From: an uncultured delta proteobacterium | Lineage (GTDB): Bacteria; Desulfobacterota; Binatia; UBA9968 | Direction of reading: 5' to 3' | Length of the DNA: 64,000 nt | NCBI GenBank assembly: GCA_963771465.1 | Contig: CAVYTU010000009.1 | Location: forward strand, 32,001 to 96,000 | Shown: positions 34,657-42,302 of the stretch, one piece after another | How positions within the stretch are numbered: position 1 is the first letter of the stretch | Layout: each line of letters begins with the position of its first letter | The notes under the pieces: model-generated | What the model was told of the DNA's origin: nothing | The model's database searches: none | Seen by the model: only the letters and a program-made list of their open reading frames with translations | Position numbers and translations under genes: made by a program

Positions 34657-37887
<3,231 letters not shown>

Positions 37888-37896
37888 GAGTTACGA

Positions 37897-39057
37897 CTAG
37901 CCTCGATGTTTTGCCATCATGTCGGTGAAGCGTTTGAACAAATAATCGGCGTCATGGGGTCCGGGCGACGATTCCGGGTGATACTGGATGGAAAATAAGG
38001 GTAGTTCGCGATGCGCCAAACCCTCCACCGTGTTGTCGTTGAGATTCAAGTGGGTCACTTGCACCGCGCCGCCAAGGGAATCGGCGTCCACGGCGAAGCC
38101 ATGATTTTGCGCGGTGATTTCGACCTTGCGTGTGGTCAGGTCCATGACCGGCTGATTGCCGCCGTGATGGCCAAACTTGAGTTTGAAAGTTTTGCCGCCA
38201 AGCGCCAAACCCATGATTTGATGCCCGAGGCAAATGCCGAAGATCGGCTTTGTGCCGATGAGCTTTTGCACGTTATCTTTGGCGTAGGGCACCGCATCGG
38301 GATCGCCTGGCCCATTGGAGAGAAAAATTCCATCGGGATTGAGCGCCAGAACTTCTTCAGCCGGCATCGTCGCCGGAACGACTTTAACCTGGCAGCCGGA
38401 CTCGGCGAGATTGCGCAGGATGTTGTACTTGATGCCAAAATCGTAGGCGACGACAAAATAATTCGGCGCAGCGAAGCTCGCTTTGCCGCGCCGCTTAGCG
38501 ATTTTGCCGCCATCGCGCTGCTTGTAACCGCCGCTCAGTCCCCACATCCCTTGGTTCCAGTCGTAGGCCTCGTCGCAGGTCACGTTCTTGACCAGATCGA
38601 CTCCAATCAATCCCGGCGACGCCTTGGCTTTGGCGACAAGCTCCGCCGGATTCGAATTGACCGTTGAGATAATTCCATCCTGGGCGCCGTGATCGCGCAG
38701 ATGGCGCACCAGCGATCGTGTGTCGATGCCCTGAATGCCGACGATGCCGTTCGTTTGCATGTATTCATGCAGCGGCTCGCGCGCGCGCCAGTTGCTCGGC
38801 TGCGCCGTGTAGTCTTTGACGATGAAGCCGCGCACGAAGGGTTTGCGCGATTCGACATCTTCTAAATTAACCCCAACATTGCCGATCTGCGGATAAGTCA
38901 TCGCCACCAATTGCCCTTCGTAAGACGGATCGGTGAGGATTTCTTGGTAGCCGGTCATGCTAGTGTTGAAAACCACCTCGCCGATCGCTTCGCCCTCCGC
39001 GCCGAAAGCGAGACCTTCGAAATATTTGCCGTCCGCCAGTGCTAAAATCGCTTTCAT
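37897..39057 (-). CDS. carA: carbamoyl-phosphate synthase small subunit
   Basis: GEVVFNT.MTGYQE, SNGPGDP, GICLGHQ, QYHPE. Confidence 0.98.
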
Positions 39058-39059
39058 TA

Positions 39060-41024
39060 TTATGACCGCGCCGCCTTTTTTTCCCCACCGGCACTCGGCG
39101 ACTTCACGGCGTCCGCCGGGCCGATGACCGAGAAGATCACCACTTGATCTTTTTCTTCCTGTTCCAAGCCGCGCAGCTTCACCCGTACGCGATCTTTCTC
39201 GGAGCTGGGAATATTCTTGCCGACATAGTTCGGTTTCACGGGGACTTCGCGATGGCCGCGATCGATCAACACCGCCAACCGCACCGACTGCGGCCGGCCC
39301 GAACGAAAAATAATGCTCAGCGCACTCTTGACCGTGCGGCCGGTGTGGACGACGTCGTCGACTAGAATCACTTCGCGGTCTTTGAGGCTGAGCGGCGCGG
39401 CGTCTGGATCGGCTGGCGCCAGACGCTTGATCTCGTCGCCCGAGCCGTAAATTTCGATCTCGCCCAATTCGATTTTACGCTTGCGCTGGGTTTCGATTTC
39501 CGCGGCGATGCGCTGCGCCAACTGCGAGCCGACGCTGCGCACGCCGAGAATCAGCAAGCGATCCGGATCGCGGCAGTCGCGCAAAATTTGCCGGCTCATC
39601 TCCGCCAACGCCGAGGCGATTTCCACGTCATTCATGAGCGCCCGCTGCGGCCCGCTTTTTATCGGCTCGTAGCCAAGCTCTTCGGCTTCCTTGATCGAAT
39701 TGAAGATCGCCAGTTGTTTCTTCTCCAGCCAGCCGTCAATCTGGCCGGCGAGCGAATGATCATAGGAGCAATAGCGTTTGCTCTTCACGTCACCGACAAA
39801 CTGCACCTTGAAGCGATGATCGCAATAAGCGCAGCCAAGGATCAGCGTGCCGTTCTCGCCCACGGTGAACAATTCGAAACGCTTATCGGTCGACACCGGC
39901 TCTTTCAGAGTCACGCAGTTGGGATTGTGACACTGCGGTCCGAGCTTCTCCGGACTTTTGTAGGCGGGCGCTTTGTTAATTGGCGCGGCGGCTTTAGCCT
40001 CACGCCGGTCAAAGAGAAACTTTAGTAGCGCCATGCGCACCGGCACGCCGTAAGCCGCCTGTTTGAAATAAATTCCGCGCCAGTCTCTGTCCAGTTCCGG
40101 CGATAGCTCGTCGACTCGCGGCAGCGGATGCATGACCACGGTGTCTTGAAAACGCTGCTCGCGCAAAAACTCCGGACCGATGGTCGGGTAACTGGCGTCG
40201 GCCGCGCCGTCCTTCATGCGCTCTTTTTGCTTACGCGTCATGTAAAAGGCGTCGTAGCGCAGACCGGTCGCCAACGAATTCAATCGTGCTTGAATCACCT
40301 CATCGACTTGGGTGAAGAGCGCCAACTGATGCGGCTGCTTGGGGGTTAAATATAAGGCGTCAGTTTCCGTCATCACGGCACTCAAGTCATCGGACGCCAT
40401 CGGCGCCAGAGCGTAATCATATTCCCGCTCCAAGCGTTCAAGCACATATTGCGGCAGCTCCATGCCGTTGGCCGCCAAGGTGACCACGTTGGCGCCAAAG
40501 CGCGCCAGCGCGAATACCAGAGAATGAATCGTCCGGCCGTTTTTGAGATCGCCGCACACGACCACTGTCAAACCTTTGAGCGCGCCCTTTTCTTGGCGTA
40601 GCGTGTAGAGATCGCACAGCGTCTGGGTCGGATGCTCATGACCGCCATCGCCGGCATTGATGACCGGCACGTCGGCGTGCTCGGCCATCGCTTGCACCGC
40701 GCCGTCCCAATTGTGGCGCACCACGAGAACGTCGGCGTAGGCCGAAACCACCTTGGCGGTATCCGCCAGGGTTTCTCCTTTCGCCACGGAAGACGACTTC
40801 ATGTCCGAGCAGCTGATCACCGAGCCACCCAAACGCTGCATGGCCGACTCGAACGACAACCGGGTACGCGTGCTCGGCTCGTAGAAGAGCGTCGCCATGA
40901 TCTGGCCGTTTGCCGGACACTCAGACCGTAATCGCTGGGCCGTATCGGCCAAAGAAAAAATCTCTTCGATCTCGTCGTTGGTCAGGTCGGCTATGGAAAT
41001 TAAGCTGCGCATTTCAGTTCGCAT
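39060..41024 (-). CDS. pyrB: aspartate carbamoyltransferase fusion: PyrB + PyrI Zn domain + Ada-N-like module + PyrR-like PRT domain
   Basis: [35 protein letters not shown] (aa 1-340); CHNPNC...CAYC (365-401); [20 protein letters not shown] (460-634); start may be the ATG at 41012. Confidence 0.92.
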
Positions 41025-41571
41025 TTCGGCCTTGCCAATCGGCGACGATCACTTGGTCGACGCCATCCGACTCTGCCAACAATACGTTGACCCGTTGGCC
41101 ATCCTGGGCATCGATATTTTTACCGACAACGTCGGCACGGATCGGCAGCTCCCGGGCGCCGCGATCGATCAAGACCGCGACAAGAATTCGTTTGGGCCGG
41201 CCAAGCCGCTCCACCGCCTCCATCGCCGCGCGAATGGTCCGGCCGCGAAAGATCACGTCGTCGATCAGGACTACGACTTTGTCGTCGACCGCGACTTGGA
41301 CTTCGAAAGCGCCGACAGCCGGCAATTCCGATCGCTGGCTTCGGTCATCACGATAGGGCGTGACATCGATAACGCCGACCGGCGGCGCCAGGTGATTCAT
41401 TTCCTCAAGCTTGCGCGCCAGCCGGCGCGCCAAATGCACCCCGCGTGAGCGAATCCCGATGAGCACCAATTCACGAGGTGTTGACGCCTTCTCGACAATC
41501 TCATGCGCCATCCGCGTGATGACCCGGACGAGATCGTCGCCCTGCAAGACAATTTTTCGCTCTTGGGCCAT
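41014..41571 (-). CDS. pyrR: pyrimidine operon attenuation protein PyrR
   Basis: ITRMAHEI, GIRSRG, DVTPYRDD, LIDDVIFRGRT, DRG.RELPIRAD.VGK. Confidence 0.93.
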   Translation of the reverse strand: MAQERKIVLQGDDLVRVITRMAHEIVEKASTPRELVLIGIRSRGVHLARRLARKLEEMNHLAPPVGVIDVTPYRDDRSQRSELPAVGAFEVQVAVDDKVVVLIDDVIFRGRTIRAAMEAVERLGRPKRILVAVLIDRGARELPIRADVVGKNIDAQDGQRVNVLLAESDGVDQVIVADWQGRNAN

Positions 41572-41608
41572 AAAAAAAGACTCCGTCGGCGTTACCGAGA
41601 GAGTCTTT
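41572..41608 (-). terminator. attenuator terminator of the pyr leader, overlapping the pyrR SD
   Basis: minus strand AAAGACUC-UCUCGGUAACGCCGACG-GAGUCUUUUUUU, directly before the pyrR ATG. Confidence 0.8.
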
Positions 41609-41642
41609 GCGCGCGCGAATTATGTAAGTAAATTTTGCTCAT
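41592..41642 (-). CDS. putative 16-aa leader peptide MSKIYLHNSRAQRLSR
   Basis: ATG 4 nt after GGAAAAGG; stop TAA in the terminator loop. Confidence 0.45.
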   Translation of the reverse strand: MSKIYLHNSRAQRLSR

Positions 41643-41646
41643 GTCG

Positions 41647-41679
41647 CCTTTTCCGATCTCGCAGGATCGAATTAAAAGG
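41647..41679 (-). promoter_or_regulatory. PyrR-binding stem-loop
   Basis: CCUUUUAAUUCGAUCCUGCGAGAUCGGAAAAGG matches the CUUUAA / UCCnGnGAG PyrR-site pattern. Confidence 0.82.
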
Positions 41680-41687
41680 TATGAGTT

Positions 41688-41716
41688 TTTGTAACTTGGG
41701 TGCGGCCGATTGTCAA
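41688..41716 (-). promoter_or_regulatory. sigma70-type promoter of the pyr operon
   Basis: TTGACA-17-TACAAA; predicted +1 near 41681, just before the PyrR hairpin. Confidence 0.65.
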
Positions 41717-41889
41717 CGAATAGCGCGTAAAATTTTCGAAGGGCCAAAGTGTGTTGGCTGACCGGGTCGTCTCTGCCGCACGGATCTTACGAATGTTTTG
41801 ATAAAATGGTCTCGATCCGCAAAGAATCTGGCGTCTATAGCAAACGAATTCTAGCTCTCTCTCGCTAGCGTTGTTGCCGCGGCCAATTG

Positions 41890-42096
41890 TCAAGGCATTC
41901 GAACGTGTAGGCGAGCAGGATCAAGACGAGTGCGGAACGTGCGGTTACCCCGGATCACAATCCATGCGAGCCGGTAATTACAACGCAGGCATTGGCCGTT
42001 GACGGCTTGCGAGCGGGTGTTGCGTGCAGGTTCTCGCAGGATGATTCCTACGTGGCCGTTACACCGTGGGCAGGTGCGCGTTAAATAACGAACCAT
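41890..42096 (-). CDS. small zinc-ribbon protein (CPxC-x23-CxxC)
   Basis: MVRYLTRTCPRC...CLRCNYRL. Confidence 0.7.
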   Translation of the reverse strand: MVRYLTRTCPRCNGHVGIILREPARNTRSQAVNGQCLRCNYRLAWIVIRGNRTFRTRLDPARLHVRMP

Positions 42097-42140
42097 CAGC
42101 TTAACGCCTTGCGCATCCTGGCGATTTGAGTTTCTGATGG

Positions 42141-42302
42141 TCACTTGCCGCCCAAGATCAACCGCCATCCTCTCAGTTGGAAACCGCAGACGGCACAATA
42201 GGCCAATAGGGCAAGCTGTCGGCTTTGGGGTGAAGGTTGGCTTATGACGACGCCGAAGTAATCACGGCACTTAGGGCATTTGCGTGAAATGTACTTGGCC
42301 AT
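42141..42302 (-). CDS. small zinc-ribbon protein, tandem paralog (53 aa, below the ORF-track cutoff)
   Basis: MAKYISRKCPKCRDYFGVVISQPSPQSRQLALLAYCAVCGFQLRGWRLILGGK; Cys at 9/12/36/39 as in its neighbour. Confidence 0.72.
   Translation of the reverse strand: MAKYISRKCPKCRDYFGVVISQPSPQSRQLALLAYCAVCGFQLRGWRLILGGK

Follow-up and report, generated by a model that had tools for sequence, protein, structure and literature searches.

A pyrR leader lies between positions 41716 and 41572 on the minus strand of a 64,000-nucleotide stretch of DNA, referred to here as the window, from an uncultured delta proteobacterium of the GTDB lineage Binatia (assembly GCA_963771465.1, contig CAVYTU010000009.1, positions 32,001 to 96,000 of the forward strand). 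An earlier note on this DNA had proposed that PyrR blocks initiation on a short upstream frame and that the ribosome on this frame is itself the antiterminator. Comparative sequence evidence supports that proposal, and the leader is probably a PyrR-controlled, ribosome-dependent transcription attenuator placed before pyrR, a fused pyrB, carA, and carB. It is composed of a promoter, a PyrR hairpin, a 16-codon leader frame, and an intrinsic terminator. This anatomy can be read directly from the DNA and is conserved in relatives. The start codon and the open state of the leader frame are under selection, and no supported RNA antiterminator was found in the window or among the 49 leaders compared with it.

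The proposed mechanism can be sorted into two states. When pyrimidine nucleotides are plentiful, PyrR would bind the hairpin at 41679-41647. PyrR carrying UMP or UTP binds its hairpin in Bacillus, and both the binding and the effectors assigned here are modeled on that protein. The hairpin contains the sequence AAAAGG and ends four nucleotides before the leader AUG, so no ribosome would be expected to load on the 16-codon frame while PyrR is bound; the terminator would then fold and transcription would stop just before pyrR. A 30S subunit requires approximately 20 nucleotides upstream of its AUG, and at this locus those nucleotides are the 3' half of the hairpin with AAAAGG, from which bound PyrR would exclude the subunit.

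With no PyrR on the RNA, translation would begin at the leader AUG and the ribosome would trail RNA polymerase. An intrinsic terminator requires a free 5' arm while the polymerase is on the U tract, and a ribosome covers approximately 15 nucleotides downstream of its P site. The trailing ribosome would cover the terminator 5' arm (codons 12-16) and the loop, the terminator hairpin would not form, and the operon would be transcribed. A ribosome at approximately codon 12-16 would touch a polymerase located on the U tract, which would account for the tolerance of stop codons from the arm onward and not before it. Leader translation would also unmask pyrR for translation. This second level of control is probable because the terminator hairpin contains the likely pyrR Shine-Dalgarno (SD) sequence and ends seven nucleotides before the pyrR AUG, and variants in which the leader frame ends on the pyrR start codon fit the same reading.

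Anatomy of the pyrR leader

The promoter, PyrR hairpin, AUG, 16-codon frame, terminator, and GGAG sequence were all recovered where the earlier note had placed them on the minus strand. The -35 box (TTGACA, 41716-41711) and the predicted -10 box (TACAAA, 41693-41688) were identified by direct reading and are separated by a 17-nucleotide spacer. A simple consensus scan of the window flagged neither the promoter nor the terminator. The promoter was missed because the scanner demands a T at the last -10 position and TACAAA ends in A, and the terminator was probably missed because of an internal mismatch in its stem. Measured between the -10 box and the AUG of pyrR, the predicted leader is approximately 110 nucleotides long.

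The PyrR hairpin (41679-41647) was identified by its match to the Rfam PyrR model RF00515 and by covariation across the leaders of relatives. The model matches positions 41683-41570 of the minus strand over its full length with 48.1 bits and an E value of 1.4e-5, and this is the one RF00515 match in the whole 6.9-Mb genome. The PyrR-binding core and the purine-rich internal loop expected of such a site are present, and the poorly matched segment corresponds precisely to the middle hairpin in the Firmicute model. The end of the 3' strand of the PyrR hairpin is AAAAGG, which is SD-like with respect to the leader frame, and the 16S rRNA of the genome carries a canonical CCUCC anti-SD sequence at its end.

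The leader frame (MSKIYLHNSRAQRLSR, 41642-41592) was identified by direct reading and by its conservation, with the AUG at 41642-41640 and the UAA at 41594-41592. The intrinsic terminator (41608-41572), identified by folding and covariation, has a 5' arm at 41608-41594, a three-nucleotide loop at 41593-41591, a 3' arm at 41590-41576, and a U tract extending to 41572. Counted from the A of the leader AUG, the 5' arm occupies +34 to +48, the stop codon lies at +48, and the ends of the 3' arm and of the U tract fall at +66 and +70, respectively. The UAA had been described in the earlier note as lying in the loop; its AA does lie there, and its U instead closes the stem as a U-G pair. The likely pyrR SD sequence, GGAG (41584-41581, by direct reading), is within the terminator 3' arm. 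The pyrR ORF (41571-41014) begins immediately 3' of the U tract, with its AUG at 41571, and encodes 185 amino acids. Its product was assigned by NCBIfam NF003549 (199.2 bits, cut-off 138) and contains the Pfam Pribosyltran domain.

The minimum-energy fold of the leader consists of the PyrR hairpin and the terminator, with a value of -33.5 kcal/mol. The PyrR hairpin alone has a stability of -10.4 to -14 kcal/mol and the terminator in the window approximately -18 kcal/mol. Folding of the growing transcript of the window did not engage the terminator 5' arm in another structure at any length.

Conservation in relatives

PyrR orthologues of relatives provided 49 distinct compact leaders from Binatia-type metagenome-assembled genomes (MAGs), referred to as alignment A1. 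The records are titled Candidatus Binatia, uncultured delta proteobacterium, or Syntrophobacter sp. SbD2, and all are soil-type MAGs; NCBI taxonomy places Binatia within Candidatus Binatota. Left out of the 49 were L017 and L049 (same sequence, from a genome flagged as unpublished, G005, with the same layout and a binding core that deviates from the pattern searched for), L012 (which has lost the binding hairpin), L022 and L053 (cut off by contig ends), L024, L069, and L071 (unit approximately 190 nucleotides further upstream), L029 and L030 (a paralogue without a leader), and 13 duplicates. Neither the counts on these 49 leaders nor those on the 25 sites of the wider sample described below draw on G005. 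In L069 (identical to L024) and L071, the unit of hairpin, frame, and terminator is intact, stands approximately 190-200 nucleotides further from pyrR, and is separated from it by inserted sequence. The spacers between the two hairpins are strongly diverged within the 49 leaders and form 28 clusters at 60% identity.

Of the 49 leaders, 47 carry a TTGAC[AT] -35 box upstream of the hairpin, and in 37 the spacer is 17 nucleotides long. The -10 box of relatives, at equal spacing, occurs as TATAAA, TAGAAA, and TAAAAA. The PyrR hairpin has 12 pairs that are 96-99% paired, five of them with compensatory changes, and the terminator has 14 pairs, ten with compensatory changes. Taken together, the two hairpins are 92.4% paired with 15 pairs showing compensatory changes, a value reached by none of 500 shuffles. 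The RNAalifold consensus of the 49 leaders contains these two hairpins only, the binding loop and the terminator. The spacer between them is unstructured and G-poor (16% G, 27% U).

The start codon is located 2-7 nucleotides 3' of the hairpin in 48 of the 49 leaders (45 AUG, 3 GUG), and the conserved AUG position implied by the earlier proposal therefore holds. Its U and G occupy invariant columns and its A varies very little, which puts the start codon level with the PyrR-binding core, whose columns are invariant in all 49. The recurrence of the layout in these leaders, the frequency of the -35 box, and the invariant U and G of the start codon place the arrangement at this locus beyond chance. 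In the window the leader AUG is paired in an extension helix, CUCAU/AUGAG. This helix was considered as a conserved element and rejected, being 36.9% paired across the leaders and no better than slid controls; conservation of the AUG is consequently not due to upstream pairing.

A separate observation concerns the base 3' of the start codon, which is A in 43 of 48 leaders. The resulting AUGA (noted at window 41640-41639 and in A1) gives a UGA in the +1 frame.

Extent of the leader frame

Between the start codon and the terminator arm, an in-frame stop codon is found in one of 48 leaders (L063), compared with 17 of 48 in each of the other two frames. Shuffled spacers gave 22.4 ± 3.4 leaders with an in-frame stop, and none of 2000 shuffles was as low as one. 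The same pattern persists when a single leader is taken per spacer cluster. A stop is then present in one of 28, against 10 and 10 in the other frames and 13.0 in shuffles, and again none of 2000 was as low. The frame is thus open to the terminator arm in 47 of 48 leaders, far below the shuffled expectation for stops, as the earlier proposal implied.

The general feature is that the frame covers the terminator 5' arm, which it does in 47 of the 49 leaders. The stop codon falls in the terminator loop in 34 leaders, at the 5' edge of the terminator arm in three, in the 3' arm in one, at or a few bases from the pyrR start in six, and 16-26 nucleotides inside pyrR in three. One leader has its stop before the arm (L063) and one has no frame (L020). 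Among the six that stop near the pyrR start, L002 and L007 have a UGA that overlaps AUGGCUGA, and L016 has AUGA. The first triplet of the loop is a stop codon in 39 of the 49 (TAA in 20, TGA in 15, TAG in 4, and TGG in none), and length variants of -3, -3, and +6 nucleotides (L021, L062, and L052) retain phase. The stop in the loop, also part of the earlier note, is therefore only partly upheld as a conserved feature. It is in phase with the start in 34 of the 49 and is frequent, but it is not required, and most of the remaining frames run to the pyrR start or terminate shortly beyond it.

These end points bear on the strongest alternative, in which control is mainly translational. Here the hairpin and U tract would hide the pyrR ribosome binding site (RBS) and termination would be constitutive or leaky. 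PyrR would still block the leader frame, leader translation would open the hairpin, and pyrR would be translated by coupling or reinitiation, with antitermination by the ribosome minor or absent. This arrangement is considered unlikely, although several features agree with it. The pyrR AUG is 0-6 nucleotides 3' of the U tract in 46 of 48 tabulated leaders, and an SD-like purine 4-mer is present within 20 nucleotides of the pyrR start, in or beside the terminator 3' arm, in 37 of 48. Leaders that lack the loop stop or have it out of phase carry a frame that runs to the pyrR start or close to it (for example L002, L007, and L016), which is a classic arrangement for coupling. Against it stands the terminator itself. 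The terminators have 7-9 U residues following a hairpin of -17 to -29 kcal/mol, which is a canonical strong terminator, and masking of an RBS needs no U tract. Translational control and antitermination by the ribosome are compatible, and the two may act together.

Search for an RNA antiterminator

The next alternative is a classical switch of the Bacillus type, with a weak RNA antiterminator formed by the upper stem and loop of the PyrR hairpin and the terminator 5' arm. PyrR would stabilize the hairpin and the leader frame would be incidental. The best candidate antiterminator found is this pairing. For its evaluation, the energy gain was defined as the stabilization of a transcript ending at the terminator 5' arm by pairing of that arm upstream. 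Long-leader controls (n = 13) consisted of 11 Paenibacillus records, one Paenibacillaceae MAG, and one Bacillota MAG (L107).

The energy gain is 0.0 kcal/mol in the window, with a family median of -2.0 kcal/mol. It is at least 3 kcal/mol in 18 of the 49 leaders and at least 5 kcal/mol in five. In 12 of the 13 long-leader controls the gain is -3.6 to -6.8 kcal/mol. The distance from binding core to pyrR is 84-102 nucleotides in the Binatia-type leaders (L032-L072) versus 190-240 nucleotides in Paenibacillus. A classical antiterminator is visible in the Paenibacillus leaders, where the 3' strand of the hairpin repeats the terminator 3' arm; this strand repeat, seen in 12 Paenibacillaceae controls, is absent here.

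The candidate helix in isolation has a value of +5.8 kcal/mol in the window and is not predicted there. Its median among the leaders is +3.7 kcal/mol, it falls below zero in 13 of the 49, and in none of them is it more stable than the binding hairpin. No covariation was found for the helix in the 49 leaders: its score is 0.186 compared with 0.179 for shuffled alignments, and 102 of 500 shuffles attain it. Of the 11 pairs in the helix, one is disrupted in 43 and another in 31 of the 49 leaders. The stable RNA antiterminator that would have contradicted the earlier proposal is consequently not seen in the window.

A switch of the Bacillus type is improbable on these values, and it would leave the conserved start codon and the stop-free frame unexplained. 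In its favor are the 18 leaders with an upstream gain and the candidate pairing itself, which is formed in 75% of cells in register versus 34-55% when slid. The pairing is also the minimum-energy fold in partial transcripts of some relatives (L008, -16.1 versus -13.9 kcal/mol). The L008-type pairing was examined as an antiterminator and rejected, being unstable in the window and lacking covariation.

Leader peptide

A functional micropeptide, or an arrest peptide that senses a metabolite through the nascent chain, is highly improbable as the role of the frame: its length is constant (16 codons in the 29 canonical leaders analyzed) and RP(S/T/P)R recurs at its C-terminus, but in those 29 leaders no conservation of codons 2-11 and no three-base periodicity were found (entropy 1.44, 1.40, and 1.50 by codon position), and the recurrent C-terminus is the translation of the conserved terminator 5' arm. 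Selection appears to act on translation as such and not on the peptide.

Observations weighing against ribosome-dependent attenuation

Several observations weigh against the proposed attenuator and are collected here. The first group concerns the site and its initiation region. The 48.1 bits of the window site do not reach the RF00515 gathering score of 54 bits. Even with no PyrR bound, the PyrR hairpin is stable and the SD-like sequence is hidden within it, so initiation on the leader frame may be inefficient, and the SD-like AAAGG of the frame is weak. Kinship among the relatives means that the leader statistics overstate the strength of the conservation.

The second group concerns RNA pairing. 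The 18 upstream gains described above belong here, as does the control L107, with a gain of only -0.6 kcal/mol, which shows that the energy measure does not split the leader types cleanly. In one clade (L004, L005, L008, L009, L011, and L028), the candidate pairing comes close in stability, at approximately -10 kcal/mol compared with -12.5 kcal/mol. In view of this pairing and of the 18 gains, a weak auxiliary RNA antiterminator may exist in some relatives.

The third group is composed of deviating leaders. Fifteen of the 49 lack the stop in the loop or have it out of phase, and the five leaders with an out-of-phase stop triplet in the loop suggest that inheritance or structure may partly account for the loop sequence. 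L063 has a one-codon frame (AUG-UAA) and keeps both hairpin and terminator. L020 also keeps both and has no AUG or GUG, only UUG or AUU; its frame from the AUU is open through the terminator and in frame with pyrR. Neither L063 nor L020 has a stop triplet at the first loop position. An RNA antiterminator as a replacement in L020 was considered and rejected, since the alternative stem breaks the binding hairpin and leaves the terminator core intact. L012 (genome G021) has a deletion of approximately 60 nucleotides between two AGCAA copies, which removes the PyrR hairpin and the leader start and retains the terminator and an intact pyrR. Constitutive termination would be expected for L012 under the proposed mechanism. 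Its genome is a 67%-complete MAG, and the deletion could be an assembly artifact.

Transcript data form the last group. Contigs from three soil metatranscriptome runs are identical or nearly identical to coding parts of pyrR (41242-41560), and none of these reaches the leader. In a fourth run, 33 nucleotides of the binding hairpin were matched with differences, which indicate that the match is probably from a relative.

Operon genes and PyrR paralogues

The genome contains a PyrR gene, and the site precedes pyrR, the pyrB fusion, carA, and carB, all on the minus strand. The pyrB fusion (39060-41024, identified by Pfam and NCBIfam) is next after pyrR and encodes 654 amino acids. It is followed by carA (37897-39057) and carB (34657-37887), both identified by Pfam.

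The 654-amino-acid fusion contains the aspartate carbamoyltransferase catalytic chain (residues 6-337), a PyrI zinc domain (364-406), and a PyrR-like phosphoribosyltransferase domain (458-631; NF003549, 150 bits, cut-off 138). The PyrI N-terminal nucleotide-binding domain was not detected in the fusion with Pfam or NCBIfam, and the PyrR-like domain may therefore be the nucleotide sensor of the enzyme. In most relatives belonging to families f1 and f2, the contig that carries pyrR also has PyrR-like matches within open frames of approximately 620-730 amino acids.

A third PyrR-like paralogue of approximately 184 amino acids, 38% identical, is present in the genome (G000:C17:316667-317182, outside the window) and in every relative; L029 and L030 represent it among the leaders collected. 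Sister family f3 has this third paralogue as its sole PyrR match, with no PyrR hairpin or leader upstream.

Two further ORFs lie on the minus strand upstream of the leader, at 41672-41893 and 41890-42198. They encode 73 and 102 amino acids, have TTG starts, and show no Pfam match. The first extends through the promoter and into the hairpin that binds PyrR, and it probably does not represent a gene.

Distribution in other lineages

A wider sample of 151 genomes of the same GTDB phylum was searched with RF00515 at E ≤ 0.01. A match is present in 32 of the 151, and only 14 of the 32 are above the Rfam cut-off. Annotation pipelines miss such sites because the Rfam model expects the Firmicute middle hairpin and scores them below its cut-off.

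From this sample, 28 PyrR-site hits were taken, of which 25 were analyzable. A start codon located from -2 to +12 nucleotides 3' of the hairpin, with a frame that reaches the terminator 5' arm, is present at 21 of the 25 sites (14 AUG; 7 GUG or UUG). At the remaining four sites the frame stops 1-4 nucleotides before the arm. Shuffles gave 6.8 ± 2.2 such sites, and none of 1000 reached 21. The same layout was found in MAGs labeled Verrucomicrobiota (L081, L106), Planctomycetia (L087), and Omnitrophica (L086). A leader from Thermodesulfovibrio (L104) does not have this layout.

A broader reading can be put forward tentatively from these counts. Ribosome-gated PyrR attenuators might form a distinct and widespread class, usual in Binatia and the surrounding phylum and occurring also in Verrucomicrobiota, Planctomycetia, and Omnitrophica, in which one site would control two levels. 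The leader ribosome would both prevent termination and unmask the pyrR RBS. The stop at the top of the hairpin would mark the furthest point that the ribosome needs to reach, and the ribosome would be released there, 23 nucleotides before the pyrR AUG. If the proposed mechanism holds, such control would be the rule across large uncultured lineages and not an oddity of one thermophile, and tight coupling of transcription and translation would be implied in these bacteria. The compact unit of approximately 110 nucleotides, regulated by both a protein and the ribosome, would be amenable to coupled in-vitro testing.

Comparison with known systems

The standard model of PyrR in Bacillus, as given in two publications (PMC1913097, PMC6524683), consists of an anti-antiterminator, an antiterminator, and a terminator. 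The pyr attenuators of B. subtilis resemble the leader described here in the regulator family, in the binding-loop core that includes UCC.G.GAG, and in the presence of a terminator before pyr genes. They differ in that no antiterminator was found here, the leader is compact, with the binding core 93-102 nucleotides before pyrR, a conserved frame occupies the spacer, and there is one site in the genome, with an RF00515 score below the cut-off.

The pyrBI operon of E. coli, which encodes aspartate carbamoyltransferase, is preceded by a leader frame (pyrL) that extends over the terminator, and a ribosome close behind the polymerase prevents termination. The signal in pyrBI is UTP-sensitive pausing of the polymerase, and no RNA-binding regulator takes part. 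The leader frame here likewise runs over the terminator, with the 5' arm covered in nearly all leaders. Unlike in pyrBI, a PyrR site is predicted to gate initiation on the frame. UTP-sensitive pausing may also contribute here, in a spacer with the 27% U given above.

For Thermus strain ZO5, a translating ribosome in place of an antiterminator was reportedly proposed for pyrR-pyrB-bbc-pyrC, together with a Bacillus-like PyrR, by Van de Casteele et al. in J Bacteriol in 1997. The transcript start is reported to lie approximately 115 nucleotides upstream of pyrR. The proposal is reportedly also mentioned in a review of pyrimidine regulation that appeared in MMBR in 2008. On this account, the idea of a ribosome in place of an antiterminator is not new. 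Within the literature covered, full-text searches for PyrR with leader peptide, uORF, or Thermus returned only the standard Bacillus model. RF00515 also matches the Thermus thermophilus control genome. By its reported description, the ZO5 leader would resemble the one in the window in having a PyrR site and a leader frame that overlaps the terminator without an antiterminator, as well as a similar length. The present case differs in its comparative support (49 and 25 leaders) and in the other phyla represented. The novelty of the present case lies in how broad and strong that support is, in the phyla concerned, and in the stop codon that recurs at the tip of the terminator.

In Mycobacterium smegmatis, for which translational repression by PyrR was reported by Fields and Switzer in J Bacteriol in 2007, the PyrR binding loop reportedly overlaps the RBS of a pyr structural gene and no terminator is involved. 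As in that case, PyrR would block initiation at the locus in the window; here the blocked site would be that of a leader frame controlling a terminator. If the proposed mechanism is true, it would be a third mode of PyrR action, as gatekeeper of a leader frame, beside the anti-antiterminator of Bacillus and the SD occlusion of mycobacteria.

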